The notes beneath the pieces are model-generated. The model ran no database searches and was not told the DNA's origin. It saw only the letters and a list, made by a program, of their open reading frames with translations. A stretch of DNA of 61,976 bases, counting the filler, from Hausera hauseri (Eukaryota): NCBI GenBank assembly GCA_046269625.1. It is 10 parts of 10 records of this genome, joined end to end, with 100 filler letters (N's around TTAATTAATTAA, not from the genome) between each part and the next. Parts side by side here need not be neighbours in the genome. Positions count along the whole stretch, not along the records: positions 1 to 12,879 come from JBJURY010010011.1; 9 more parts are not named here. One strand, given 5' to 3'. The translations under genes and the position numbers were made by a program. Below are positions 1 through 61,960 of this stretch, piece by piece (position 1 is the stretch's first letter; every line of letters starts with the position of its first letter).

Positions 1-179
1 TTTTGGGTGATTTTTGGTTTAAATAACAGCTGTTGACTAGGGTACACAATAAAATGAAAAATATTCGAAAAATCGAGTTTCTTCGAAAAAATTGGAAATC
101 GATAACTTTGATTTTATTTGATAGAGGACATTTTCCTGATTCCGGCAAATTTTATCGCACATTAATACGATGAATGGGT

Positions 180-3100
180 GCTGAGATATAACATTGTTGA
201 TGTGGATTGTTATTTCTTTTTCGTCCTTGAGAATGATGATGTTGTGAGAGTGTAAACGAATTACTTTGTAAGGGCCAACATACTAAAGTTGAAAACCATA
301 CGGCGTCTGATTCTTTAGCCATTCGAACTTGGCAGTATATAAATCGTCGGGTATTCAGGGTTTATTGCCGTGCAACAATCTAAAAAATGAGTCTTTTCTG
401 ATCTCAATGAAGTATCTCTAAGCCGCTTGTATGGTTTCGCCTGTAGGAATGTTGTCCAGTTCAGTCAGCTCGAATAATGGTCTGATAGAAGTACCAAATA
501 ATGCTGCTGCAGGAGAGCAGCCTGTAGAAGTAGATGGTGTGTTCCGCCAGCCAAGTAGAATGTACGAAGGAGTGTAGTCCAACTGCGATTGGACTCAGCA
601 AGGATTTTGAGAGACGTTTTCATCGTTTGTAAAAGCGTTCGAGAAAGCTGTTTGATTGGGGATGGTATGGTGTTGTGTGAATGTGGTTTATTCCCAATCG
701 ATTGACAAGAGCTTTAAACAGGTTGGATTCGAACTGTGGGTCTTGGTCCGAAATGATGTGGCGAGGTGATCCAAACCTGCTGATCCAAGTGCGGATGAAA
801 GCATCTGCGATTGTTTTTGTGTTGGTGCTCCGAAGCTGGACAGCCTCTCGTCATCGCGAGGAACGGTCCATCATTGTGAGGATAAACTGATGACCGTTCT
901 CGAAGGGTAGTGCGCCTACAAGGTCAATGTGAACAGATTCAAAACGAGACGTGCGGGGAAAATGATATAGTGGTGACTTTAAGTGCTTAGTAACTTTGTA
1001 TTTTTGACATGCCACACACTGCCTAACTCATGCCTGCACGTCAGAGCGCATCGACGGCCTTACTACTTGGCGTTGTAAAAGTCGAAAAGTGGCCTTTGCA
1101 CCAGGATGGTGCAACGAATGGATGTTGTTGAATGCTTCTTTTTGAAGCGATTCAGAAAGGATGACTTTAAGATTATTAGGTTTGGAGGTGTCAAAGGCCG
1201 CACCGTCGATGGTTTTTCACAATTTAAAAGATTTAAGGATGTCAGGAGGTGGCTGGTTTTGTTGAAGTTTGGATTGAGGGAAAATTGGTGTAAAATCAAT
1301 CGAGCTGACCGATCAAGACAAAAAGTCAGCTACTAAATTATCCACTCCGTTTAGGTGCTTAATTACAAAGTTAAATGTAGACAAATACGATATTTGCCTC
1401 TCCTAACGTGGAGAAGGTGATTTCATGGTAAGAATTTGAAGCAAGGGCTTGTGATCCGTTTGTATTCTAAAGGTTCGTGCGGTTAGCAGATTCTTAAAGT
1501 GTTTTACGGCAAGGACCATTGCAAGCAACTCTCTGTCAAAGGTGGAATATCTTTGCTCTTGTGTGGTGAATTTTCGAGAAAAGAATTCTAATGGCTCATG
1601 GGATCCATTTTTGACTTGATAAAGGACAGCACCTGCAGCTGTCGTGGATGCGTCCGTGGTTAAGAAGAGTTCTGCATGGGAGTCTGGATAGGCGGGGATT
1701 TCAACAGTTTTTAAATTGTCTTTGAGATGATCGAAAGCGTTGACTAAGTCGGCAGTCTATTGAATAGGCTGTTTCTTCTTGCAAGAACTTAGTGATGCAA
1801 ATGGAGCGGTTAGAGTGGAGCAATGTGGAACGTACTTATGAATAAAGTGCAACGTTCCGAGGAAAGAACGCATCTTTGTTGATGTACATGGTAGTTGTAT
1901 GTTTTTGAGCTGTGTTATGCGTTCTGGCTGAGGTGAATGTCCGGAGGAATTAATAACATGTCCTAAGAAATTGACGTTGTGTTGAAAAAAGGAGCATTTG
2001 GAGAAATGGATTTGAAAGTTGTTTTGGTGCAAGCGTTGAAAGATTAAACATAAGTGTTCATAGTGTTGTTTGGAGGAAGATAATATAATTAGGATATCAT
2101 CAATATAGGGATAGGCGAAGTCTAACCCTGATAGTACTGTATCGATATGCCTTTGGAAGGTCTGGGAAGCGCTACGGAGTACAAAAGGCATGAACAGGTA
2201 TTAGAAAAGGCCGAAAGGTGTAATGACAGCCTTTTTCGGAATGTCTGCTGGGGCCACTGGAATTTGGTGGTATGCTTTATGTAAATCAATGCAGAAAATG
2301 ATGGTCGCACCATGGAGCCTGTGAAGGATATTGTTGATTAATTGTATAGGATACGCATTCATTGTTGTTATGTTGTTGAGTTGGCGGTAATCACCGCATG
2401 GGCGAAAGGTGCCTTCTTTTTTCGGAACCACATGCAGTGGCGAAGACCAGGGGATTTGGATTTTCTGATTATGCCTGATCTTTCCAGTTCGAGAAACTGA
2501 GCCTCCACTGACTGCATGCGACGAGGCCATAGCGGGTGGATCTTTTGACGTATTGGTCTCTAATGTGCTGTTACTATGTGATGAAAGGTGGATTGAGGTG
2601 TTACGAATGATTTGTCCTTCTGCAACAGACGTGTGCAGGAAGACGAAATGTATTGCTGTAGGTCAGAAGGCAACGATGAAAGTTATCCGATGGTGTAGAT
2701 GCATCGTGACTGTATGCAGTTGAGGTATGAGTTATAGATAAGGTGTGGTGACTGGGTGGTATTTGGTGCAAGATGTTCGTGTTGAAGATGGTGTTTTCAG
2801 CAGTGTTATTAGTAATAGGTGCCACGCAGTTGGCAATATCGTATCTGTCACTGTAGTAAAAATTTCTGTATAATGTATGATTATAAAAATAATTTAAATC
2901 GGAAGTCGTTTGCTTCAGTATTGACTTGTTGGAAGCGATCGTCGGGGTGATCACCGAAATGCTGATAATTTGATTAAGATTATTTTTGCACTTTAAGGAA
3001 CATCGCTTGCAATCTAAAAGTAAATTGTAGTGGGACATAAAATATGAACCCAATATAAGTGTGCGTACATTAACTACTGTAAATTTTCATATGAATGTGT

Positions 3101-4785
3101 TAAGGAGGTGTGGAAGTGTGAATGTTAATTTGGTAATTCCAAAAATTTGTAAAGGTTCACCAGACGCAGTGAACAGTTGTATTTTTGAGGTCAAATTGTT
3201 TTGGATGTGTTGTGTTGGTGGCAATAAGGAGATTGCTGCGCCGGTGTCTATAAGAAAGTTAATGTTTTGCTTTGTTAGAGTGACAACTGCTGCTTCCAAC
3301 GTGAATACAGCAAAAGAAATGTGTTGGCTAACTTTTTGCAGGTTAGTGTCTTTGCTAGGACTTGCCGTGTGTCCCAGCGACGAAATCAGTTTTTGTAGCT
3401 GGTGAGTTTTGCCTACTGTTTTGTGTGAACTTAGTAGTGTTGGTTTTATTGTGTGTTGTAGGTACAACCAGGTAGGAATTTTTGTGCTTTTGTGCAAAAT
3501 TTTGAGTGATAGATGCAAACGGTGTTGCTTGTATTAAAATTATGGGAATAAAATTTACAACCGATGCAGAATTTCTGAGCAATGTTTCCGAATTTGCTAT
3601 GATAATAGAAAACAAATGACCGCGCGGGCGAAGGTGACTCTCTTTGACGTTGATTAAATACATTAGGAGAAGCAGTCCTAAAAAAACCCCGTCGAGACAG
3701 CGTTAATTCGTTTAATTTTTCATTTATGTTGTTAATTGTATTCTGTAACTTTCCGTAACTCGTTGCGTAATTGCGCAATTTGTTGCTGCAGCATTGCATT
3801 TTGTTGTTGTTGGTTTGCTGTTAATGCTGCAGAGACAGTTGGTGTTGTGTATGAGTGCAGTACATCATATGCTTTGTCTGCCAGTTCGGCTAGTTTGTCC
3901 ATAGCTGTGCAGTTCTCGACCACGGTAAGCAAGGATCTTATTTGAAGGGGCCATGCATTTAGAAAGTATCGGCGAATAAGTTCTGGACTATGCTCAGATG
4001 TCACGCCAAGGGTGTTGAAGTGAGACAGAATTCAGAAGGCTTGTGAAGGCCCATGGCGTTGTCGTTAAAGAATCTTTGAATAATTGAATCGACTGACGGC
4101 TCAGTAAGCTTGAGAGCGGCATTGTAAAGTTGAGTATATAGGTCGGTGTGCTGAAGGATGTCAATGATATTGGTAATTTTAGTTTTGATGGAAACTGGTA
4201 AGTGAAAAAAGAGGCTGTTAGCTTTGGATAAAGAGTAGATGACGTTTTGTGATTGGAGCCAAAATTGGTGCAGTTTTAGCCAAGTTTGAGTAGAGTTTTG
4301 GCTGTCGAGGAAGTATTAGGTGCAGGGTGAATGCGTAAGGAGGGTGTGTTGTGTTGAAATGTTTGAAGCGCCTTGTTTGGGTAAATGAATGATAGGATCT
4401 GTGGTTTGGTGAGTTTGTCTGTGGTATCGATTGTGGGTGAAGAATCCATGACATCATGGATGCAGGAGTGAATGTGAGAGCAAACGCAAATTGTAGAAGG
4501 TTGGTGGGATCCAGCGAAATGCACAAAAGATCCATTGTATGTGAGGTAGAAATCAGATTAGTGAAGCAAGGTAGAGATGAAGGTGTAAATGGCTGCAGTA
4601 TGTAAATGTAATGCTGTGTATGTGTGCATATATTTGTTATTTAAAAAAAGATGGAGTAGAGAGAGGTTACATGCCCGGGACCGTTGTGGGGCGGCAACGA
4701 ACGGCGCCGTCTGACGTAATGACGCAAGATGAGCGGCCGGGACCTCAGCCTCACCGCGGCGGGTCCGAAATTTCGGGGTGATCGA
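180..4785 (-). mobile_element. Degenerate Ty3/gypsy LTR retrotransposon, CsRn1-like (UBL-gag-PR-RT-RH-IN), copy A
   Basis: Gag RRYFLNAWPLQIRSLL plus two CxxH-KF-A-C knuckles (3446-4004). Protease FLIDTGAAISLLP (~3240). RT PWSSPLHVVPKK/RPCGDYRQLN/IDLHKAYHQIP/YPYIDDILI (1757-2530). RNase H LTTDASTTAAGAVL and YSTFDRELLA (~1500-1680). Integrase HIDLVGALP and HIISDQDPQFES (~700-950). Many stops and frameshifts. Confidence 0.93.
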
Positions 4786-4897
4786 CTTCCTTCTCAAAGG
4801 TCCTACTCCAAAGTGCCAGTGCACAAAACGTCTTTTAGAAAATAAAATGCCAAAGGACTTACAGAAGGACTCAAATAGTTGAAGTATAACAGTAGTA

Positions 4898-5794
4898 CTA
4901 GGTATCATCATAACTGTTGCTTTGTGCCATTTCTGAACTTGGAACAGCAACCGGTGGTTGGCTATTTATATCTGGTTTAAAAACTGTTGGACACCTATCG
5001 CTTTCCATAGCTAATGAATTTATTTTCTTTTTCAATTGATTCAGTTTTTTAACGATCGTATTATATTCGGTTGTTGTCGATTCCAATGCGGTTTGACTTT
5101 CCTGGAATTGGTTTTCGTGCAATTCGATTTGGTTTTCTTCGGTTTTTCGAATTTCATTTGACGTACTCTCCTTTTGTGTTTTGACGTTAATTAGAAAATG
5201 AATTTGTTGGGAAACTTCCGGTTTCATTTTCATCTTTTGTTGTTTGGCTGTAATGTTTTCGTTGATGCCTTCGGGTAGTTTTAATTTACGCACGAACGAT
5301 AAAAGGGACATTAAAAGTTCTTCTAAACTATCGGCTTGTGATGACAGAGATCGTAAGGAACTAAGCCACGTTGAAATTGATTTTAGTGCGTCTAAATCCG
5401 ATTTAAAAGAAATCAACAAAGTCCTCGGCATAATGGATTGGGACAATGGACTAGCCAAGTGGCAGTTGTGCGGCAGCCATGGGAATTCCCAATTGTCAAC
5501 AAAACACTTTTTAATTCCAGAATCAAGTTTATCTTTTTCATTTAAACCATCACTAAAAGTTGGCCCGGAATCTTTGGGTAACATTTCACCTAAGAAAGAA
5601 ATAATCTTTTTTCGTATCTTTAACGTTGGGATACAAAGAAAATGCGGGATAAAAACAATTATACATTCCTGTCTTCTGTTTTTGAAAAATGGAGTCGTAA
5701 TGCCAAAGTTGTTTAAACGCTTCGATCTGTCAACAATTCTGTTGGACATACTTAATGACAGCAGAAATAAAGTAAAATACGCAATTTTCAACAT
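4898..5794 (-). CDS. Unidentified ORF with coiled-coil C-terminal half, between the FNDC3 copy and the gypsy leader
   Basis: 298-aa open frame with a heptad-like stretch (EIRKTEENQIELHENQFQESQTALESTTTEYNTIVKKLNQLKKK). No family recognised. Confidence 0.35.
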   Translation of the reverse strand: MLKIAYFTLFLLSLSMSNRIVDRSKRLNNFGITTPFFKNRRQECIIVFIPHFLCIPTLKIRKKIISFLGEMLPKDSGPTFSDGLNEKDKLDSGIKKCFVDNWEFPWLPHNCHLASPLSQSIMPRTLLISFKSDLDALKSISTWLSSLRSLSSQADSLEELLMSLLSFVRKLKLPEGINENITAKQQKMKMKPEVSQQIHFLINVKTQKESTSNEIRKTEENQIELHENQFQESQTALESTTTEYNTIVKKLNQLKKKINSLAMESDRCPTVFKPDINSQPPVAVPSSEMAQSNSYDDT

Positions 5795-5830
5795 CGTTTC
5801 CGATTTGTATCGTTGTTTCGTAACTCGTAA

Positions 5831-8614
5831 TTACCGAACCACCATTGCTTTCGGGCTTTCCCACACCAAATTTATGCCTCCCGGAATGAAGTTGCCACCT
5901 TTCGCTTTGAATCCAATGTCCTTACGCGGTGGTAGCGTTTGTCCAGACAGCATGGAGGCCAAATTAACGGTAATTGGGGAACAAGGAACGCCCGAGCCGC
6001 CAACTGAGGATTTTGCTGAAACTCGCACCAAAACTACTACCGGGTGTAAGATCCTTGCATATGTGTTGTCATTAGTTGCCCTCATAGTATGACACCCAAT
6101 CATGATCTGAGTCATCCATGTCGACATTGTTCGAGACTGATTTAGAGATATCTACGTTTACATTTATTTCTACTTTGAATGATGTGAATGGTAATCCTCC
6201 GTCGACTTCGGGAGTCTTCCAGACCTGACAGAATGATGTAGGGGATATCTTTCCACGAACACGCAGTTTTTGTGGACAACTCGGTAAATCTGGTTTCGTC
6301 GAGTGAATGACAACATCATTCCAATTACTTCGACCGCCCTGATTACTGGCGGCTAAATGGAATCGATAATTTGTATTCCGTCTCAAATTTTCAACGTAAT
6401 GCTCGATCTTGGATCCGTTGAAGACGGTAATGAATCCATAACCAGTGGCTCAGCCATCATTTCCAAACAAAACGTTTCATCGCATGGCCGTTTCTTCCAA
6501 GTAAGCAGTGAACCGCTGGCTTCAGCCCTAGCTAATATAGGTGGTTCTGGGGCTGATGAAGCAGTACCAGACGTTGTTGCAGATAACGGTTCACTCCATA
6601 AACTTTGACCGAAAGAGTTTATAGCTGATAGTCTGATAAGATATTCGGTCGATGCCTTCAACTTCAGAATCTTAAATGTTTTAGCATTTCCTCGGAATAC
6701 TTGAATATAGCAGTCATTATTCGAGTCAGCTGGCCGATATTACAATACAAATTCGGTGATTTTTGATCCGTTTTCAACCGGTGAATTCCATTTAACTTGA
6801 ATATAATTTCGACTTTTCGTTTGCAGAATGACAGGCTTCGGTGGGGTTGGTTTCGCGGGTAACGTTGTGAACTTGTTTGCAGGAAATAAGTTATCAGTAA
6901 TGTTATCGTAGATACAACACACTTTAACATAATGGTCTGTTGATGGTTTGAGGTCTTGCAATGATATTTCAACCGCTTCGCCGTAAAATACACAATTGTA
7001 TCGGCTGTCCGGATTTCTTTCGGCGAAGTGCAGTTGGAAAGTAAAGTCACCGGAGTTAATGGTGGCGACACAGTTATTTGGAACTTTAGGGCAAATGAAA
7101 TGAATTAGTACACTTCTGGCTTCGATTTCTGAAACCTCGAGCTTTTCAATAGTGTTCAGTACATCTCTGATTGCACGTTTTTCATTATCAGGCAATATAG
7201 TACTGACTTCATCAGCACTGAACAGAGGTGAACCACCTTGGTCATGAATGTAATGATGCTTGATTGAACAGGTACTGTTTTGAAACGATCTATTTTGATA
7301 TTTCGAGTAGTAATTGTGAGGTGAATACGATGGGAAATTCTCGCAGTAATTCTCATCTCGATTGTGATTACTGGAACCACCATTAGTAACGGACTTTTCG
7401 TGATAATGATATAGGTCGGTCGACGATGATTTACCACCGTCGTTGGAATTTGACGCAGAAAAAACTATTTGGGAAATCATGTGGCATAATTTCTGCTTTG
7501 GATAGTAAGATGAGTCGTCCCCCTGTGATGAATGATAGTACTGATGTTGAATACGAGGTTTTACAGTTCGCAGTTTGTTTTCTGAAATTGACTGAGTTAA
7601 TTGACTAGGCTGCTTTACCGAGTCGCCAGTGAAATTATTTGACGTAACACCACGATGGCTATTTGATAATTGAGAATTATTTGCATTAGTGATTGACGGA
7701 GGATTAGCAGAGTGGATAGGCTGCATGTGCGATGTGAGACATTGAGTCGGCTGATGAAGTGGACTCAAAATCACATGCGTAAGAATGCCATACTCATCAA
7801 CAATTTGTTGAACAATATGACCTGGTGGTACGTGCATGGGCACCGGGGTCGGTGGACCACTGTTTGGTACCATTCTCTTTGTTACCGGTACAGAAATATT
7901 TTGGATCTGATCACCAACCAGAATGGAAAACGTCTCTCCCAAATTGACGTGAACCATGACGGCATGTTCACCGCCAATTGCCGTAATATTGCCCGTGTTA
8001 TTTCCACCGGGCACGGCAAAACTCGAAGTGTTGATAATTGGTGGTGACACACTGAGTCGACTGCCACCTGAATTGTGGAAGTGTTGAACGGTATTATGGT
8101 TATGGACGAATGGTGGAGTCCCGTGGACAATAACTGGAGGTGACGCAGTTGTCATGTGAGTAACAGAATTGATTGCCGGATGGTCCTGGTTGGTGGTAAT
8201 GAATCCGTGGAATGATGCAGCGGCAGTGCTGGGATCCAGTGGATAAATTTGTGCATTAGGCAATGTCAATGCAGTCGGATAAATGGCAACCGCTCCACTG
8301 TCAGCCAAATTTAACACGGTCATGTTGAGACTCGTTGGTTGGACTGGGTGGTTTTGTGCGCAACTGGTTACATGAATATCTACAGAAAGACAGTTGTCGG
8401 GTTCATTTAAAGCATTTTCCGTTGTGAATTGTTCGTCAAAGGTCGACTCAACAAAGTTGTAATCAACAATCAGTGTTTTCTCGTTGGTAGAATTGTTATT
8501 GTTATTACGATTTTTACTGCACGAATTATCATTATCGTCAGTATTCGGTTCTTTTGATTTCAGGGTTGTTACAACTTTCTGTTTCGGAACGAATTCTTTA
8601 GCCGTTGAATTCAT
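5831..8614 (-). pseudogene. FNDC3: Intronless, frameshifted, 3'-truncated FNDC3 (miles-to-go-like) copy
   Basis: FNDC3 N-terminal motif VMVHVNLGETFSI...PMHVPPGHIVQQIVDEYGILTHVILSP, then successive FN3 repeats (LQDLKPSTDHYVKV, WNSPVENGSKITEFVL, STEYLIRLSAINSFGQSLWSEP, WKTPEVDGGLPFTSF) split over several frames. No introns seen. Confidence 0.85.
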
Positions 8615-11600
8615 AACACACTTTTTAAATGTTGAACAATTTGCAGTTTTCGATGTTACAGTTTGATCTTCTCTGATGACATTTTATCTGATGACATTTA
8701 TCATTTGGATATCATGCATTTATAAAACAATAGTTTTGTAAAGGCAATAACCATGTAATTATAGAACAATGTAAAGAAACGTTACCTTTTTCTGACACCA
8801 GATGTGATTCTGTATTATATCCGTTAATGAACAAAGAAAGTCTTCCAAGATTTGGATCAAAAAAAATATCTGAAAATAAAATTTCAGTATTGCAATATCC
8901 AAAGTTAAATTCAAATCTTTTAAACAGAAATGGCACTCTGAATCAAAACCAAAAAAAATTTCGACAAACTGACAAAAACAATATGATTCAAAATGTCAAT
9001 ATTTCAAAATTCCAATGCAAAAATGGCGAGTAAAGTTTTGAAAATTCATAGAGGCAAAAAATTATGTATTTATATCTTTACCATATTTAAGCAAATGTTT
9101 TTTTGTACATTTTGAGTAAAACAAATGAATTACATGCATAAAGAAAAGAACACGCCGGTTGTAATCAAACATTTTTTTTGATTTGGAAAGTACTATTATT
9201 TGACCCTTGCAACGGTATTTGATGATTTTAATGAAGGTGCAGGTAAATTTGGTCCCGTAGTTAATGATTATTGGTTTAGTGAATTCAATGCAGAGTTTGT
9301 CGATCGGGTCGTAATTGAGTTTATGTTCTTGGAAACGTTGCTCATTTTAGAAAGAGCAGTTTGGACTTTTAAAATTTCATCGTCTTTATACTGTAGCAGA
9401 CTATTTGTATCGACGATATCGTGAATAGATAATGCATTAGATTCGGCTTTTCTGTTAATTGTAGCGTAACGATAATTGTTCCGTCTCATCACTCGTATCT
9501 GTATGAGTTGGCCTCGATAATTCTCAATGATATTGGTTACGCCTTTCAAATCTTGCATGTGAGTTCTATGGGGTTAAATCAATTACCACAAGTCGAGAAA
9601 CAGATAAAGTAAATTGATTGTTTCATTTACAATTACGCGAAGATCAAAGATCAAATCAAAACAAACCGCGTAAAGCGAAATCATAAAAGGTAAAGGATTA
9701 CTATGTGATCATAGCGAGCTACTAAACTGTCTAGCAGTGACGACAGCTGGTCAATCAAAGTTACAGACCCCAAATAAAGTCCTAATGATTATAAGCAAAA
9801 TTCGACACGTTTATAACTATAATTAGGTCATAAAAAACTTAGAAATAATTAAAGTGTACACAAACGCTTCTTAAAACATGGTCCATGGATTACTACTTAA
9901 CGGTCCGTTTCGTAAATATAATGATGACGTAATTATATCAGAACAAAATGCGAAAACAAGTTGAATGTGAAGATTTAAAAAAGCTGTTGGTGCCACGAGT
10001 AAGAATATTGCAAAGATTTTTTGGGATCCATAGTCATAGTAAGTTTAATAATCGTTGGTTTAGTGTGGTGCCCACCGTTTGCACGCCCCGCGGCCGAATG
10101 GTTGGACGACGTCGGGCGCCTGTCATCGCTTTAATGGCGTCCCGGGCCTCGAACCGTACCAGTCTCTTGCGCCGGGTCCCGTTGCCGCGCGACGGTATGA
10201 ACACTCAACCCAGTTTTTTCTGGATGCTTCCTCGTTAGAAAAATATTTGTGGCTCATTGACATCAGGTGTCACATTTAATTCGAAACATTGTGGCGTGTC
10301 AGCAAATTATATGGACTTCGATGATTTTCTGCCGAACCTTCGTGTACAAAATCCTTCTTTGTCGAATTTTCAAACTCACTGAAACATAGATTAGTATCCG
10401 GTCGATTCAATCTCTTGAACAGATACGCTTGTCGTTTCACCAAATTACGTCCATCGTTGTCCAGGCTCTATGTTAATTTCCGGTGATTGTCGTGAGAGAA
10501 GGAAATACGATGATTCCAGTTCAGTGGATGAAATACAAATTCAACCAAGAAGCAATAAAATCCGTCTGGTTGACGAATCAACAAGTTCGGCGCAAACCGA
10601 TAATCTCGAAGTGAAGAAACAGCGAGTCTATCGAATCGTTGACAAATACTTTACCGAAGATCTGCAGCCAGTCCACGTCAGCGGTGATGGAACGTTGATG
10701 TGTCTGCCACGAGAAACCTTCAGCAGCGAATGTTACAATATCGCCAGAAGAGTTATTGAAAAATACAAACAGAGCAACAATATTTCCTCGGCCAAAAATG
10801 GGACCCGGTATTCCACTGCGCCTGTTAACTCAGTTCCGTCGTGACAGTCCACCGGCACTGGCTCTTTACAGTCCGTGATCATTTCATCTTGCATTTATTT
10901 GTAGGACTAATAAATTTACGAGTTTTCTACTTATGCCATGTGGTTTTGTGTATCTGTACTTCTTTTTTCGTACGTTTTGCGCGTTGTCTTTGTAAAGATT
11001 AATTTGTTTTTTTTTGTTATTTTGTATTCATCTTATTTTTATGCATTTTCTCTTGCTGACGACAGTGAAACCATGCAGAGAAAATAACCTTTAGATGTCA
11101 GATTAGACTTGGTTTATTTTAAGTTTGCCTTCTTTAAAAATGAGTATTGCAGGAGGAATATTAAATTGTAAAACGCTGCAATAGATAAATTGATTTTTAA
11201 CGTTGAATTTGTATAATTTAATTGTGAATGTTTATTATTGAGGATTGTTATGCTTATATTGTTGAAACACGATTTTGTTTTAATAAATTATTAATAAACT
11301 TTATGCGGATTTTTTTTTCAAATTTTCAACTAATCTTTTAGAATAACACAAACCAGTGACATCAGCACCAATCTCAACCTTTGTATTTAAATATCATGAC
11401 AGGAGAGAACAAATAATAATGGTCAGCTTTTGCAGTGCGTGATAAAAAAGATTGGGAGAAATTCCGCATGGCAGAATGAACGTGCTAAGGACCCTGCGGG
11501 TCGTAATCTGTTTATGAGGACAAATATATTTATCATCGTGGTGTCAGTTATCAACACTTTGTTGCATACGTGGATATGACCGTTACGATGGCTTCAATTT

Positions 11601-17751: not shown

Positions 17752-17810
17752 GAACTATATGACGGCACTACGTCTATAGTTCAATGAATATATTTATGGT
17801 TTTCTCTGTA
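17752..17810. repeat. Partial copy of the 22542-22630 MITE, internal segment inverted
   Basis: ACTATATGACGGCACTACGTCTATAGTTCAATGAATATATTTATGGTTTTCTCTGTA matches the reverse complement of the full copy. Confidence 0.85.
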
Positions 17811-20829: not shown

Positions 20830-22541
20830 TGTTGTAAATAATATTTGTAAATAGATATATTTGTTTTTCTTGTTTATGATTTTGTCTTTATTGGCAACAG
20901 TTTATGGTTGAACAGTTGGAATGGATGCTGTCGACCATATAATGAAAACGTCGTATGTTATCTTTTGAATAAATACCGCATTTCCCTCGCTACCGTTCAG
21001 CACACCAATGACTTGCGCTAGATGTTCATATTAAAATAGAAATGGCTTATTTTGTTGCATATTTTGGTACAACACGCTGGTGAATGTAGAATAATGCAAC
21101 GAAACTGTAAAGACTACTGGGGGATATTGCACGTGCCAACATTTATCGACGTTAAATTTGGACACTAATTATTACACAGACGAATAACTTGGCATTTAAA
21201 ATAATATTTCAACAAAGAACATTTTGCCATCATCAAATAGGAGAATTGTCATTGTGTCAATAAGAAATCATAAAAATAAAATTATTTAACAAATAACGGA
21301 AGTTCATTTTCATTGTTGACAGAATTACCGAATAATCATCATTAACAATTTCTATATCCGTGAAAAATTAATATTGACAAATTCATAAAATAATTCCCAC
21401 ATTTACACCAGTTGAGATATTTTCCACTTATTAACTTACCAAATGATTCCATAAATAATCATTCATTAAACATACCAAATTACCAATGAAAAATGTCTTA
21501 CGATCTCAATAATTTCCATTGAATGTATCGAATTATCGTTAAACTTTCCATGATAATTCAACGCATGCAAAGATACCTATGATTGCAAATACTTGCTCTG
21601 TCGATGTTGTGCATATGAGTGTAATGATGGTAACTCAGAGTTCATCTAAAGCTACTGTATCTACTAATATATTGGAATGTATAATGCAGATATATTGACT
21701 ATGAGAAACAAGCAAATTATATTCCACTGTTGTGTTATCGAAAACCTTTCACAGAAAATCTATAATCTATCACAACAAAATAATGGAGAATAACGGAAGG
21801 TTTCATATTTATACACAAACAACAAAGACCGTACGGTGATTTCATAATAATAAATGAACTTTGCCATAGTTAAATAAATAACTTCAGATTCAGTTTAAAC
21901 TCTACCTAATGATGAATTCTGTCTGATAATAATACTAGCTAAAACAAAAATAGTATCGTATTTAAGCCAATCAAATTCCAGTAAAATGACTAAAATAGCC
22001 GATTTATATGTATTTCGTACTTACAATTCAAATGCAGAAATTTTGTCATTTAAATATCACGGATAAATTGTTAAATAAAGTCTTCTGAAATTACAAATAC
22101 AGTACTGAAATGTTCATTCATTCATTAACATTCGAAGATTGTTTTATTTAAAAGAAGCCGAACGTAAAATTACACTTTCCGATAGTAATAATTATAGACT
22201 ATTAGCATAAGAGTAACCATTTACCAGCTAAAAATAATCCATGAAATCTGGAAAATTCATGAACAAATAATGTAGTTCCCATGCAGAAAACGAATAACTT
22301 TAAACTGACAAAGTGATTCAACAGTAAACAAATTACTCATTAATAAAAGTAAAATACATTATGAAGTTAAATATAATCAAATCTTTAAAAATGTAAAAAT
22401 AATTCCAAAATCAAATTAATTTTCCTTAACATAAATTCATATAGTCTTATTAAAAATGGCTCCAATCAATAATTAAAAATAGTAATTAAATAGATATCCT
22501 ATTAACAATTTCCCTTAATTCAAAATAACAATCTAATCAAA

Positions 22542-22630
22542 TACAGAGAAAACCATAACTATATATTCATTGAACTGTAGACGTAGTGCCGTCATATAGT
22601 TCAATGAATATATTTATGGTTTTCTCTGTA
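22542..22630. mobile_element. ~85-bp hairpin MITE with TA flanks (Tc1/mariner-type)
   Basis: TA-CAGAGAAAACCATA..ATATATTCATTGAACT [21-nt spacer] AGTTCAATGAATATATTTATGGTTTTCTCTG-TA. Confidence 0.85.
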
Positions 22631-22665
22631 TGTACATAACAAAGTCAGAATGAGAAAAAAATTAC

Positions 22666-40369: not shown

Positions 40370-43345
40370 CCGTTTGGAAAGATAATATGTCCGAGGAAAT
40401 TAACGCGTTTCTGAAAGAAGTTACATTTCGCAAAATTTATCTGTAGGTTGAGCTGGTTAAGTCGTTTGAAGGTAGATCGTAGGTGTTCCTCGTGTTGTTT
40501 AACAGAAGAGAAGGGAATCAAGATATCGTCAATATATGGATGCGCCAAAGTGAAGTCTGAAAGGATTAAATCGATGTGTCGCTGAAAAGTCTGCGCAGAA
40601 TTCCGGAGACCGAAAGGCATATACAAGTACTCATAAAGACCAAAAGGTGTGGAAACTGCAATTTTCTCGATGTCTTCCCGTACGACAGGAATTTGGTGAT
40701 AAGCTTTGGCTAAATCAATTGTTAAATAAACTGAAGTAGTATTAAGCCTATGTAATATGTCTTTGACTAAGGGTAGTGGATATGCGTCCATTATGGTTAA
40801 AGTATTAAGCTGGCGGTAATCGTCGGATGGTCGAAAGGATTCATCTTTTTTTGGACAACGTGGAGAGGTGAAGGCCATGAGAATTTAGATCTGCGGACGA
40901 TACCTGAATGTTCGAGTTCCATGAATTCAACCTCAACTGCCTGCCTGCGACGCAGTGATAATGGACGGGCCTTTTATCTAATAGGCCTTTGATATCTTGT
41001 AATTATATGGTGGTAAATGCCGTTTACAGGAGTGAAGTATACAAAAAGTATGGATGAATTGCTGTAAATTGAGGGTAGTTGCTGGAATGTTGTGAGCGGT
41101 GATAAACCAAAGTTATTAGCAGTACTTGATATTTAGTGGTCAGTCGTTGATGAGCAATTGAATGTAGTTTGGAGTAGGGTGTTCGGGTTCGAAACCGTAT
41201 TTAAGTAAGTGCTGTTGTTCAATGATTTTACTGAAAATATCAAATCGTGAGTGTCGACGTTGAGCTGTCATCGGCTGTCGACATTGTCCGTTTTAAGCAT
41301 ACGTTGTTAAGCGTGATGGTTAATGGAATTATTATGAGTCACTGCGTTTTTTAAGATAGATACCTTACTTACTGTGGACTGTGTTGTCGTCGAGGTGCTA
41401 TTGTCGTTTATTCCTGTGCTACAGTCTACAGATGTATTTGATTTTAGGCAACGTCGGTTACAATCGACTAGTAAATTATAGTGCGAAAGGAAATCGGAGC
41501 CAAATATTGCCGTTTGGACCTTCGCGACTGTAAACGTCCAATGAAAGGGAGAGGAAAATTTTCGCAGAGTGAAAGATAATTTGCAGGTTCCGGCAATATG
41601 AAAAAGTTGACCTGAGGAGGTGTATAAGAGTTTTGTTTTAAATGAGGAATGCTGAACTTGGAAAAGAAAGTGGTCATGGTAAGATCGCTGCATCGGTATC
41701 GATGAGAAAATCTATCGATTGAATGTTAGAAGTCGAGATAGCAGTATTTAGTGTGAAGACTGCAAAAGAGGTGTGACGGCAAGCGGAATTAGATAAGTTG
41801 CCTTTGCCAGAATGTGCCGAAAACACTGGCGGCAAAATCAGTTTTTTGGATTGGTGAGTTAGCATGGTTACTTTATTACTTTAGGTTTATAGTTACAGCC
41901 TAAAATACAATTTCGAGCTCTAAATCCAAATTTTGCATGATAGATGCAAACTATGTTATCCGAGTGTAGATTCGACAAATAATATCTACATCTTAAGCAG
42001 CATTTATTTGCGTTGTTATTAAATTTGTTGTGGTAATAACATATAAATGACCGCATTGGTGACGGTGTTCGATTTCTGGAAGGCGAACGTGTTCGATGAG
42101 GCAAGGAAGCAATGCGTCGATGTAAGGAAAGGTCATTATGCTTATCATTGATGGTGTTGTTTATATGTTGTAGTGACACGTTTGCGGCGCCTAATTGGCT
42201 CAGTTGGTGCTTGATAGATGTATGTCGTTGATTGTCATCGGTAGTAATAGCTGCTGATATGATGGGTTGTGATTGGATTTGTAAGACTTCGTGTGTTTTA
42301 TAGGCCAATTCAGCTAGTTTGTTAAGGCTGTAGAATCTTCAACAACGGCTAGTAAAGCCCTAATTTGAATGGGTAAGGCATTAACGAAATGTCATCGAAG
42401 TAGATCCGGATTGTGTTCCTTAATGACACCTAAAGTACGCAAGTGAGCCAACAAGGTACGTAGGAAATCACTAGATTTTTGTGTCCCCACTGCATTTTCA
42501 TTAAAGAAGCGTTGTATTATCGAATCAATTGATGGTTCTGTCAGTTTTAACACAGCATTTAAGGGTCAAGGTGTTGAAAGATGTCCAATAAGTTATGGTT
42601 GAGGCTTTTATGGAGTTTGGTAGAAGGTAGAGTGGATTATGGGCTTTGGGTAACGAGTCTCTAATACCGTTGGATTGTAACCAGAGTTGGTAGAAGTGGA
42701 GCCAAGTTTTGTTAGAATTTTCATTGTCTATAAAATAATCAGAGCAATGTGGGGGTGTACTGATAGGATTTTTGTGAAAAGAATTTGCATCGGTTGAAGT
42801 AGGTGGATGATTTGATTTGGAGTAGTAGAGAATGAATTTGGGTTTTGTGGTCACCTTATCGGTGGTGTCACTGGGTGGTGAAGAAATCATACCGCCGCAA
42901 ATTCTAGGATGGATATGAATACATAGGTAGTAATGTAAGGACATAATGTGTGGTAGGTCAGTTAAAATGAAACCATTGTGAGTCAAATAAAAATCGCTGA
43001 AGGCGGTGGTATTATGAATGAAGGCATATAGTTGTAATGTCTCGATACATTGTGTGGTATGTATTGTCTGTATTAGGTTATTATTAACATAAAGGTAGAG
43101 GGAAAAGGGTGGTGATAGACAGTAAATCGGATAGTATGGTATCTCGATGGGGTTATCATTGTTTGTTTGCGACGATATGTTTGTTCCGTTGGTTGCTAAC
43201 AAATTGGATATTGCTATTGATGCATTACACAGAGTTTCATCGGAAATAAATCGGATTTTTCAGAGAATTTCGCTGGTCGTTAGCAAATGAGAATCGATAG
43301 TTCTATAAGTCTCGTTCTGCAGTGGTGCAACGGAATCACCGGCGA
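40370..43345 (-). mobile_element. Degenerate CsRn1-like Ty3/gypsy retrotransposon (UBL-gag-PR-RT), copy B
   Basis: Gag with ICYYHNKFNNNANKCCLRC and VCIYHAKFGFRARNCILGC, protease FLIDTDAAILP, RT DYRQLN/IDLAKAYHQIP/HPYIDDILI. Colinear with copy A. Confidence 0.93.
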
Positions 43346-43859: not shown

Positions 43860-45551
43860 TTCTAATCTTCAACACTAGCAGATTGTGCTAAATATTTCTT
43901 TTCTTGACGATATGAATAATTGCTTACTTTCAATACGTTGATTAGTCTTTGCATAATTTCATCGGGATGAAGAGGACTGGCTGTTTTCATGTTCCATGTA
44001 ACACGCAGACTTCGAGGTTTTATACTCGAATGTTCACAGGCGTCCTTGACGTCTGACTTCCTTAAAATTGGATAATCTGAATCACTGGAATTATCATCAG
44101 CATTTGTGTTTTTAAATCGTTCAAAGTATTCGGCATTTTCGAAAGCAAAGGCTCAAATTGACTATGCGGTCTCGTGTGATGTCTGGTTGATTTAGGCATT
44201 TTTGAGGCTAATCTGGTGAGAAAATTCTGCTGGACGACAGGTTCTGGACTGCTGAGACACAATGGATCGATTTCTGTCATTTGAGTAGCTGCAATGCTTG
44301 GAGTAGGGTTTTTGGACGTTACTAACTTTATGTCATTATGTGTGTGGATTGTATTTCGCTCTAGTGTAAAACGCGGGAAATTTGTATTGATTATGTTTTT
44401 CCCAGAATTCTGGTTTTTGACTTCCTTATCACCGGTCGCATGCTCGGACTTTGACAGTAAGAGTTCATTCAATGTTACATCCGGTTGTTTCGATTGTTTA
44501 TACGAATTGAAATCGTCATTTACTGAAGAATCAGTCTGACTGCTACCAGTCTGTAACGATTGTCCATACGTAGGCATTTTATTTTTCTTATAACGAGACA
44601 TGTAAGTTGTCGATGATTCACGAAGAACGTCATTGCTGTTTTTATATTGAGCACCTATTGCTTTTGATTTCTGATTACTTTTAGACGAGGTTGAAGCCTC
44701 CGCAATATTTATAACTGGACCGACAGCGGACATTTGTCCGGATGTATTGGATTTGGATTCATCGTGTAAATTTATTATGTCGGGGAAATTTAAACCTGTT
44801 TCCGTCACAGTGGACACATTAAGAGTAACATTTATCGCACATTTTTTGACATTTGAAACCTGATCGAGAAAAGATTTTTTCACAGACGTTTCATGAGAAA
44901 TGGACGTATCAATATTGACTTGATTCAATCGTTCAAGTATTTGGTCTAGATCGTCTTGATGTTTTGAATTTTTGTTTGTGTTGAAAGAATATTTTATAAT
45001 TTCATAGTATTCAATAGATCTTGAATTTTTTTATCTCCAGAACTGTCAATAGTGTCTAGACCGCCGTTTGTATTAACAAGTTTTAGGTTCACAGTTTTAT
45101 TGGACGTCACACGATTGGATACGGAAGAATAATTGTACGTTTGAGAATTTAAATTTGAATTTCCCGAGTCTTTAGCGATTTCTGGAGTTGTAACAGATAT
45201 AGATTGATGGGAATTTGATTGCTGTAATGAAAGGTTGCTGCCTGCTGTAGCATCAGTTGTTTCAAAAATTCGAATGATCACTTCCTAACAAATAATGTGG
45301 CCGTAAGGTTATTAAATCTTCTAGTCCTCAATGACTTAAAAATATCTTCCTTAGTAAACCCCAGTTTTGCATTTTCTCAATTCGAGCAATGTCATTGAAA
45401 TCTGTCGGAAGTTCCTCGTAAGGAAGTAATTTATTTGTATCAAAACCCATGTTTACCCAGGTGTCGTTCATAATATTTGTCAGCGATTGACGTTTCAAAG
45501 GATCGAGTACGAGCATTTTTCGCAAAAGTTTTTCCCAATCCGTTGACATGT
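43860..45551 (-). pseudogene. MARK: Intronless, disrupted MARK/PAR-1 kinase copy (kinase C-terminus, UBA, spacer, KA1 start)
   Basis: MSTDWEKLLRKMLVLDPLKRQSLTNIMNDTWVNMGF..LLPYEELPTDFND..RIEKM, and KA1 lead-in KPRSLRVTWNMKT..PDEIM. Frameshifts and stops; no introns over 1.7 kb. Confidence 0.88.
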
Positions 45552-52038: not shown

Positions 52039-53815
52039 TTGGTAAGTATCCAGATGAATACGAAAAACGAGCGAGGTAGTATCGACAATTTTTGGCAAAA
52101 ATGTGCAAATGTGCTAATTTCTCAGTCCAAATCGATATTCCGAAAAATTAATAACAAACTACAATGGAAGAACTTCGTAGAGTATAAACAAACCAGTGAA
52201 ATTCCAAACAATCTTAAAGGAAGCACTGAACAAGATAGAGTAGTGCAATTATACACAATGAGAGAGGATAGAGATGCGAAAGCGTATGCCCTGAGACAAC
52301 TGATTCAATACGAACCAGTTTATTACAAGAATATATTTATTCACTTGGCTGACGGAGAAATCTATTACCGACTAAAGGATCAAGCTTGGGACTCTTCATA
52401 AGGAAGGCAATATCGCTACAGCACTTTTTTGATTAATAGAGGAGATTTCCATCACTGTAATTGCGAAATAGAGTTTTGAGATGGTCTACGAAAACGCACC
52501 ATTTATCCAAGTACCACAATTACGATTCGAACAGAAACCCATTGAAAAGGATCAGGACGAACACCTGCACTCCTTTAAACTAGTGCAAGATGCTGGAAAC
52601 TCCAGGATTATATCGCTGAATTACGGAGAAGGCGACAACGGAAACGACATTCCGATCGAAATATCCGTATGAGAAATGGGTGAAATTGAAATCTACTCAA
52701 AAATCATTAGCCCCAGAAAACGAATAAGAGATACCTACTTAGAGGTCACGCGAGTAAAGAAGGAACAACTAATGCACGGAAAAGATGCCGAACTAGTTAG
52801 TGAATAACTGATCCATTGTTTGTATGGATGCATCCTTGTTGGATATCAAGTGGAAAGAATCGTGGAAAAACTGAGATTATCCACCACCTATATAGCAGGA
52901 ATTAGAGAAATAGAGACTCATCGCATAATAATGGAGCAGATGAAACAAATTCTACAAGGAAGAAATGGCTACTTGCCGCCGACCGTTGAAGGCCAATTTA
53001 AATTAATGCTCGAAGCCATGAACGGAAAACATGTAAGACTAGGATGATTATTGACAGCTAGCCAACGCTCTCAGTATTTGCGAGACATATATGCATGATT
53101 AAAATGGGACCACGAATGGATCCGTCGCAACCAAAGTCAAAACTTACGGAGTTCTACTAGCCCAGAAGAACAAAGCTCCATATATAGAAGATATTTCAGA
53201 CCTTATTCCCCTATTAGAACTGTTGAACCAATACCAGAAGACAGCTATCGGATAATTATCCAAAAACCTGAATTGAAATCAATCATCACGACCCCAAGAG
53301 TGGAAAACGAACCCATCACTAGCCACGGTTCCAATTCAGAAACTATAAAAAGGAAAGATGGGACACAAAAAAGTTTTAAAACACCCGAAATTTCAGAAAA
53401 ATATCGAGAGAAGGACAATCACCCGAAAAAGGAGAAAACCGAAACCGTATTAACCGTCAATAAAAGAAAATTATCAGTTTATGAATATCCATTTAAAAAG
53501 AAGAACCGTGAAGAAGACAAAAAGAAGTCTAATAAGGAAATAGAATTACCCAAAATAAAGCAGGACCCAAAGAGAATGGAATTCCAAAACGAAACGAAAG
53601 TAATAGAGAAAAATCGTAGAACCATAGAAACCCCGAACCAAGCGAAACTAACACAATCCGAGAAAATCCAAAGAAAAGTTAAAACGCAGGCACCAAGGAC
53701 GAAGTCCGAAAATGATACTACGTTCACCGGAATAAATGTTCTGAAAAAGAAAAGATCACAAGGAAATATCCATTTGTCAACAAATAAAGATTACCCCAGA
53801 TTATTAGTTACAGCA
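52039..53815 (+). pseudogene. Accessory 'ORF-X', copy 1 (homolog of 59543-61960), 3'-interrupted
   Basis: Blocks shared with the other copy: FIHLADGE[IV]YYR, DEHL.S.KLVQD, HCLYGCI..GY.V, LLTASQRS.YL..IY..LKW[DE]HEW..RN. Confidence 0.8.
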
Positions 53816-59550: not shown

Positions 59551-61960
59551 TTTTTCCTCCCTGAACGACATCCTCGGAAGTTCCTATTGCGTCAGAAGAG
59601 GTGGCGCCAATTGTCCTTAATGGTCTTAATTGATTCATTCTCTCGTTCAGATCGAATGAGGATTCTCGACGGTTTCGACTAATATTTGGGTTTGTTTCCA
59701 AATTATAACTATGATAGGATTTTATTCGAACGATGCGTGTATAATTTCCGTCAGAGTAGTACTTCAATTCTGTGGCCTCAGCTCGGCACACTTGACATGT
59801 TGTTTTTCCATTGTCAAGTGTCCACTTCTCTAGACAGTCTCGACAATATTTATGACGACAGCTTTTGTTATCTAGTATTACATACCCTTGTCTTAAGTTA
59901 GCTTCACAGACGGGACATTCATTATCCTCCTTGTCCCAATCGTCTCGATCTAAATCTACTTGAATTATCAAATCGATAGGCTCGAATACAAGGTCATCTT
60001 TATCTTGGTATAAGTAGCCATGAATCACTTTATGTTTGGGTTAATTGAGCTCTTACGTGGGTCACAATCCACTTGGATTAAGGTCCAGTCTGCCATAACA
60101 TTTTTGTCCACATCGGGGATATTTCCTTCTATCTTATACTTCTGATATTGTTTCTTCAGTAATACTCGGATTTGTTTGTCCACGGGAACTACTATTTTTC
60201 CTGTTCTTTTTGAGCGGAATATTGAAGTGAGATAGGCTCCGAGTCTAATGTTCTCCTATACATAGGTATTTTCGAAAACCTCTCTGGCTGGGGCAAGTTT
60301 GATGAAGAACATTGCTTCCTTTATTATTTTCTTACCGTAGTATTCTGTGGTTATCAACATTCGATGAAATTCTTGGCTTGTTTTAAAGTGTACATCCTCT
60401 TTACTTCGTTGTCCTATCAAGGCATTGATTTCCGTTATTATGGGATTCCTAATTCCCTTTTCAACGGTTCTATGTTTTGAGAAGTGCTTGGTTGATTCTG
60501 CTGGTTCTCTACTTCTTGTCCTTCGTCTGTTTTCCGCCTTTTGAATAGGTAGTTGTATATGGATAATGTTTTTCTGGGTTTGGGTTTCTCTTCTAATTTC
60601 ACCTTTTTAATTATTGTTGCTGGTCTTATTTCTCCTCTTCGTTCTTCTGGGGGCTTTGATGTTCCTTGTAGTATCTTTTCTTTTTCTTTAATTGTTAATG
60701 ATTCCATCCTGTTTTCGGTTCCCTGTTCTGGTACCGTAATCTGGCGACTATGTTTGTCTGTAAGCTGAATAGTTCGAATTGGGGAATAAGGTTTTATACT
60801 TCTATATTTTCCATCTATCTATTCAGGTTTTATAGAACTGTGTAGATTGTACGTAGGATTTCTATGGACCCATTCATGTTCCCATTTTAGTGTTATATAA
60901 ATTTCTTGTAAATATCTAGACCGTTGGCTAGCAGTCAGAAGTCTCGTAATCTTACTCGGATTTTTACTCGTAGCTTCGACGGTTATTTTGAAGAAAGCTT
61001 CTGGTGCCGTTGGTCGATTTCGTCCTTGCACGGTGTTTCCATCCGTTCTTGGACTACCGAATGGTTAGCTATTTCCCTAAGTCCGGCGATATTTGCGTCG
61101 GATATCCCTAATAGCTTGATTTCTCTTTTGACATTATATCCAGTTATTATGCATCCGTAAAGGCAATGTTCCAACTCTGAACGGACTTGTAAGATATTCT
61201 TTCCATTTATTAATTGGTCTTTTCTTAGACCAGTCACTTCCGCATGTGACTCCTGGCCGTGCTTTCGAGGGTTTATGATGGTTGCGTATAACTCGGATCC
61301 GTCTCTTTCTCGGATAAATACCTCAATCTGTATTTCATATCCATAATCTCCTCTACCATAGTTTGTAGCCAATATTCTTATGTTGCGACCGTCTTGGACT
61401 AATTTGTATGATTGCAAATGCTCATCTATTTCATCCTCTGTTGGAATTTGTTCGAATTGTAGGACTGGCAAGCCTAAGTTGCAGTCTTCTTTGTAGGTTA
61501 TTTCGAACATCAACTTGACGGGTAATGCTGTTACTCGGAATTCTAATCCGTAGTCGATAGTCTCTAGACCTTTTCCGCTTATTTTGAATGTGCTGAATCG
61601 GTATTGGCGCCCTTAATTTCCATCCCAGTGCTGATTTTTAATTCTATAGTAAACTTCTCCATCTGCCAAGTGTATGAATACGTTTTCCATTCTGATCGTT
61701 TTACTCTGGATTAATTCTTTCAGATCATATGACTTAGCCTGGTGATTATCTCTCATTGCGTATAGTGAAACCATGCGGTTATCTTCGGTAGTACCCTTTA
61801 GATCATTGAGTATGTTAGTTACTTTTCGGTATTCGACATATATTTCAGTTCGTAGTGCATCGTTAATTCGGCGGTATATCCCTTTTGATTTTGGAATAAG
61901 AACTATTCCATACTGTTGTAGGAATTTGTCAATCCTGGGTCGGCTGTTCGTACTTACCAT
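59543..61960 (-). pseudogene. Accessory 'ORF-X', copy 2, ending in a C3HC4 RING finger
   Basis: About 800 codons in fragments homologous to 52039-53500; terminal CPVC..SCRHKYCRDCLEKW..CQVCR; the stop codon lies inside the start of the putative LTR. Confidence 0.8.

Follow-up and report, generated by a model that had tools for sequence, protein, structure and literature searches.

Two decayed LTR elements in Hausera hauseri, which by their sequence are CsRn1-type Ty3/gypsy retrotransposons, carry a segment of about 70 residues immediately ahead of Gag, which ends in an Arg-x-x-Gly-Gly tail (decayed in one of the two). This segment encodes protein in the reading frame of Gag and has evolved under purifying selection. 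We consider it probable, as judged from sequence, that it is a cleavable ubiquitin-like (UBL) leader, which would be translated in frame before Gag from an upstream start, and that a host deubiquitinase (DUB) cuts after the Gly-Gly.

The two elements, copies A and B, lie in a window of 61,976 nucleotides, the whole stretch of DNA that was analysed. It consists of ten pieces and nine identical 100-base N-linkers (12880-56943), with a 12-base core that has stops in all frames. Because the pieces are joined by such linkers, adjacency across them is meaningless. The window also contains an FNDC3-like fibronectin type III gene (6072-8683, minus strand, E 2.5e-11) and, just upstream of B, a MARK/Par-1 kinase gene (43900-45551, minus strand, E 1.5e-15). 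By these neighbours, the elements reside in an animal genome. A repeat pair (53033-53224 and 60768-60955) is 70% identical and lies in opposite orientation on different pieces, and a short palindromic repeat (17752-17810 and 22541-22631) is possibly a small non-autonomous element.

A and B are located on different pieces, both on the minus strand and both with a broken gag-pol. A extends from about 4790 to the end of its contig, B from about 43340 to 40370; contig ends cut the 3' ends of both. Their nucleotide identity is 66% across 632 bases around the RT. Pfam matched RVT_1 in both copies, and their translations read in the order gag-PR-RT-RH-IN. The following features were assigned:

4773..4784, minus: PBS-like site of A, weak, with 9/12 bases as in the CsRn1 tRNA-Trp PBS (pattern from the accessible part of PMC2582038)
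4657..4772, minus: leader of A, GC-rich, with neither a stop nor an ATG in the segment's frame
4450..4656, minus: leader segment of A, 69 codons, with an in-frame stop at 4558-4560 and a decayed tail
4447..4449, minus: ATG of A that directly follows the tail position and opens the Gag part
3385..4446 (ends approximate), minus: gag of A, with stops and frameshifts, a degenerate CHCC, and an A-run plus stop near 3394
100..3533 (ends approximate), minus: pol of A, broken and reaching the contig end; protease, RT, RNase H and integrase by reading
43330-43341, minus: PBS-like site of B, weak, 9/12 bases matching the tRNA-Trp PBS
43101..43341, minus: leader of B, with one in-frame stop (43260-43262) and without in-frame ATG
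42891..43100, minus: leader segment of B, 70 codons, open, ending HIHPRICGG
41840..42890, minus: gag of B from the post-tail ATG, broken, with an A-run plus stop near 41846
40370..41839, minus: pol of B, broken and truncated within the RT by the contig end (RVT_1 E 1.7e-30)

In the pol of A, RVT_1 was matched at E 7.9e-08 and 4.4e-13, and aspartyl protease matches were weak. In the gag of B, the CHCC motif is present twice in intact form, with starts at 42041 and 41948. The PBS-like sites were placed by position, since only 9 of 12 bases match in either copy and 35 equal or better sites exist on the minus strand of the window. At the gag-pol boundary of both copies, an A-run, a C and a stop (3385-3394 and 41837-41846, minus strand) resemble a -1 frameshift site. 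Upstream of A, a host-like ORF of 310 codons (4898-5830, minus strand) ends about 110 bases from the PBS-like site. In the public run X1, which contains the stretch and is possibly the window's own source, hence not independent, contig depth drops near 4880, suggesting that the 5' LTR of A is very short or truncated.

The preliminary description of this DNA had read the segment in both copies, and its quoted strings are reproduced by translation, with X at the one stop in A. The colinearity that it noted is borne out: A and B share one frame with a single gap, and their local score of 95 is reached by 0 of 2000 shuffles (mean 31.9, maximum 61). The five alternative frames score only 27-42. Identity at codon positions 1, 2 and 3 is 0.52, 0.66 and 0.30, pS is 0.94 (synonymous sites are saturated) with a pN of 0.40, and 18 of the 25 identical residues are encoded by different codons. 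The same substitution pattern is seen in their RT and capsid pieces (pN 0.21-0.29). Because the alignment score and the codon signature arise in this frame only, the segment is protein-coding in the gag frame. The synonymous saturation further means that A and B represent separate lineages and did not both decay from a single recent element.

LTR elements have their packaging signals in the leader, and the segment could in principle be non-coding leader RNA whose ubiquitin-like tail is a chance reading. The missing ATG start, the stop and lost Gly-Gly in A and the packaging signals that such leaders hold would all be in keeping with this. Yet synonymous saturation and amino-acid conservation coincide in one of six frames, and the segment is open in frame in two unbroken relatives. 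The region is thus coding, as originally suspected, and we regard a non-coding leader as highly improbable.

The unbroken relatives come from protein searches. A profile of the A and B segments, run against 1.84 billion proteins with a threshold of E<=0.001, gave 1 match, P0004 (E 3.8e-4). P0004 and its cluster mate P0005 are chimeric gene models that combine DIS3-like and CNOT1 pieces with the segment and gag. Here, the unbroken segment ends in VHFRLCGG, followed by Ser and a full gag. Segment and gag of P0004/P0005, used as a query, gave 2 matches among 3691 candidates, including P0006 (E 6.7e-89), whose unbroken segment ends in LHISSRLLGG and is followed by Met and gag. The chimeric P0007 does not contain the Gag N-terminal region and was excluded from the counts. 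The segment is therefore present in 2 of 2 informative relatives, one of which was found by the segment profile itself. With two unbroken relatives carrying it, the segment is a family trait, as had been supposed. Searches with the B segment and the A gag fragment among longer proteins gave no match, which is weak evidence.

Pairwise identity among the four segments (A, B, P0005 and P0006) is 22-50%. All three in which the tail is not decayed (B, P0005 and P0006) retain R-[LI]-x-G-G. The residue three before the Arg is hydrophobic in each (Ile in B, Val in P0005, Ile in P0006), and A retains an Ile there. The residue following the tail is Met in A, B and P0006, i.e. in 3 of 4 lineages, and Ser in P0004/P0005. 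An invariant RxRGG, which the preliminary description had envisaged, is not supported, as Cys and Leu occupy the position of the second Arg in the unbroken relatives; the core reads R-[LI]-x-G-G.

A is a decayed member of this family, with tail and frame broken. Four single-base differences had been counted between its tail and the proposed ancestral codons, which is arithmetically correct. From run X1, 890 contigs were placed on A (40 of 360 difference rows listed) and 592 on B (40 of 60 listed). In the tail codons of A, at least five places have another letter in 85-100% of the summed depth (6-10 contigs). Among the rows listed, 80-93% of the depth (22-25 contigs) differs at the stop in A, 2420.7 of 2515.9 at the Cys codon of B, and 41.4 and 48 of 53.5 at the leader stop of B. 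Since most X1 contigs differ, the tail departures and stop in A and the Cys codon in B are private decay, in agreement with the earlier proposal; the leader stop of B is likewise private to its copy. The Cys of B being private to the window copy, it provides no evidence for a family Cys. CpG transitions had been put forward as the cause of decay. This was rejected for lack of genome-level support, with a CpG o/e of 0.94 in the window, 0.92 in A and 1.13 in B; within the 214-base segment of A alone, it is just 0.35.

For the segment we propose a ubiquitin-type fold, to which low-confidence models and a language-model lead point. Two AlphaFold2 models both contain strand-strand-helix-strand (pLDDT 57 and 61), with the final strand missing; the order of elements in these low-confidence models is beta-beta-alpha-beta-beta. 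In model 2, five elements fall within about 1 residue of the spacing from the GG in ubiquitin. In a language-model atlas, the B segment lies near four ubiquitin-family cluster sets at 0.86-0.88, which rank under the 0.9 line and below three unnamed clusters and are thus a lead only. The unbroken P0006 segment had no usable match in the atlas.

No Pfam family matches the segments of A, B or P0006, and PDB sequence searches returned no ubiquitin-like chain. With the two low-confidence models, both of which are without the final strand, Foldseek matched nothing at E<=0.001. With the same low-confidence queries, VIA-align had no ubiquitin-family chain among the 50 matches listed, the best listed being at Z 4.6 (rmsd 3.3, 64 aligned) and Z 5.7 (rmsd 2.2, 52 aligned, a designed protein). 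In a comparison with 9 natural ubiquitin representatives, chosen among 117 segments from 121 loci, the alignment was confined to the 11-column tail; its probability was 1% and its score of 13.9 no higher than the mean of 14.4 for shuffled bodies. Global scores of the body against ubiquitin have z values of 0.5, 0.8, 2.6 and 1.5, where the control maximum is 1.9 (24 windows).

These results bear on a second alternative, in which the segment is a coding N-terminal domain of Gag that is not ubiquitin-like and either stays attached or is cut by the element's own aspartic protease, the Gly-Gly serving as a hinge. The absence of any sequence, profile or fold match to a UBL and the models without last strand would fit such a domain. 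Against it, the Arg five before the junction, the hydrophobic residue three further up and the Gly-Gly are kept together at 22-50% identity, in line with what SDE2 requires for its cleavage. Length and element order also suit a beta-grasp. We therefore consider this alternative unlikely.

For the cleavable UBL leader, cellular proteins offer a comparison. Ubiquitin, ubiquitin-ribosomal and polyubiquitin fusions share with the segment its length, its tail register and a Gly-Gly followed by Met. Membership in ubiquitin proper (PF00240) was rejected, as the domain body has no detectable similarity beyond the tail. An SDE2 origin of the leader domain is a possible lead. A gathering of SDE2 sequences yielded 13 loci, among them one real SDE2-like gene (L137), too few for a profile comparison. 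L137 (about 401-432, minus strand) is of eukaryote type, with a UBL, RLVGG and KGGFG, and is interrupted by a stop or intron; its record is titled as a bacterial genome chromosome, which points to contamination or transfer. According to the accessible parts of the respective papers, DUB activity cleaves human SDE2 after PRLCGG (PMC5131917), and L70A and R73A block this cleavage (PMC13572447). The leader tail keeps both of these positions (L70 and R73). As far as those sources describe SDE2, the likeness extends to an N-terminal domain of about 75 residues, an R-L-C-G-G end that is identical in P0004/P0005 and the hydrophobic residue three before the Arg. The released product differs: that of SDE2 begins Lys-Gly-Gly, whereas Gag here would begin with Met or Ser. 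SDE2 membership was rejected, since the GGKGG junction is absent and the junctions are GG|M or GG|S. The tail expected of a cleavable UBL, R-x-x-G-G with the upstream hydrophobic residue, is found in B, P0004/P0005 and P0006 and is decayed in A. Taken together, the segment is neither ubiquitin nor SDE2, and the mode of action predicted for it is that of a cleavable UBL.

Where translation starts is the next point to consider. The Gag of LTR retroelements normally starts at its own AUG and is trimmed by the element's own protease. As the preliminary description stated, the stretch from the PBS-like site to the first codon of the segment is free of in-frame ATGs in both copies. There is one in-frame ATG inside the segment of each (4629 in A, 42944 in B) and another just past the tail. 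The Met after the tail in 3 of 4 lineages means that Gag could start there. In this scenario, the segment would be a UBL, but most Gag would start at the AUG behind the Gly-Gly, and UBL-Gag would be a minor isoform or an uncleaved regulatory or degradation tag. It would agree with the Met following the tail in A, B and P0006, with A and B being without in-frame ATG upstream of the segment, and with canonical CsRn1 Gag, which begins at an AUG near the capsid domain. It is at odds with P0004/P0005, where Ser follows the Gly-Gly. In P0005 the tail ends at 706, residues 707-927 (221) are without Met and the next Met is 928, which implies that Gag is there translated through the segment. Moreover, B has eight out-of-frame and one in-frame upstream ATG that would hinder scanning, some of them possibly private decay. 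We judge a predominant start at the post-tail AUG improbable, to much the same degree as a non-UBL domain.

Under the favoured model of a cleavable leader, translation would begin ahead of the segment, probably from a non-AUG codon within the open leader or from a site 5' of the PBS, and one frame would be translated through the segment into Gag. The segment would fold as a ubiquitin-type domain, and a host deubiquitinase would cut after the Gly-Gly and free Gag. In this way Gag may acquire a defined N-terminus irrespective of where translation begins, much as in ubiquitin fusions and SDE2. The freed domain might additionally engage host DUBs.

Similar arrangements exist in other mobile or viral systems. 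Pestivirus ubiquitin-type insertions are processed by host enzymes. In cytopathic pestiviruses, ubiquitin or a UBL before NS3 likewise places a ubiquitin-type unit in frame before a viral protein, as described in the accessible part of PMC2850149. There, the insertions are recent and derive from near-intact host genes, whereas the retrotransposon unit would be old, highly diverged and fixed across lineages. A processing signal before a retroelement protein also has precedent, as 2A-like peptides begin some ORFs of non-LTR retrotransposons. These act by ribosomal skipping in the non-LTR class, whereas a host protease is proposed here for an LTR element.

Within its clade, the segment has a restricted distribution. 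CsRn1 elements are marked by the CHCC motif CX2HX9CX3C, and the accessible text of the paper on this clade, in which the word ubiquitin occurs 0 times, covers PwRn1 and AgCR (PMC2582038). Judged by that text, the elements described here resemble the clade in the CHCC and in gag followed by pol. The weak tRNA-Trp PBS-like site and a weak match to the DUF7041-type capsid N-terminus (P0006, E 0.012, 16.4 bits, under the cut-off of 28) may be further points of likeness. The elements differ from the clade in that the CHCC is doubled (in B, P0005 and P0006; degenerate in A), that the R-x-x-G-G segment precedes Gag and that there is no AUG near the PBS. Scanning metagenome contigs for the RT yielded 9 loci, with RT identities of 46-57% to six. 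In the two closest (57%), the sequence breaks off ahead of the Gag N-terminus. L002 (527-680), a close relative at 57% RT identity that is cut before the N-terminus, has a doubled CHCC. Among the six of nine loci examined, L004, L005 and L006 show the capsid start; in all of these a Met lies 5-38 codons upstream, and R-x-x-G-G ahead of the capsid is absent. The segment profile against the 9 RT loci gave a best domain E of 3.1. As these canonical loci lack the segment, it marks a sub-lineage and not the whole clade. No relative turned up when metagenome and viral contigs were scanned for the Gag pattern, or when viral contigs were scanned for the RT.

A UBL leader on a retrotransposon Gag is not reported in the accessible parts of the open-access literature, including PMC11354881; subscription journals, repeat-database entries or supplements may describe one. 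Because Pfam does not recognise the domain, repeat annotation would overlook it. More tentatively, we can imagine that an ancient UBL capture made Gag maturation dependent on a host DUB and on a non-AUG start, gating transposition, with the freed domain as a possible DUB decoy, although this fuller scenario is rather doubtful. If the leader is indeed cleaved by DUBs and fixed in four diverged lineages, these elements would pass the first maturation step of Gag to the host ubiquitin system. This would constitute a new point of host control or exploitation, which parallels the pestivirus insertions yet would be evolutionarily stable.
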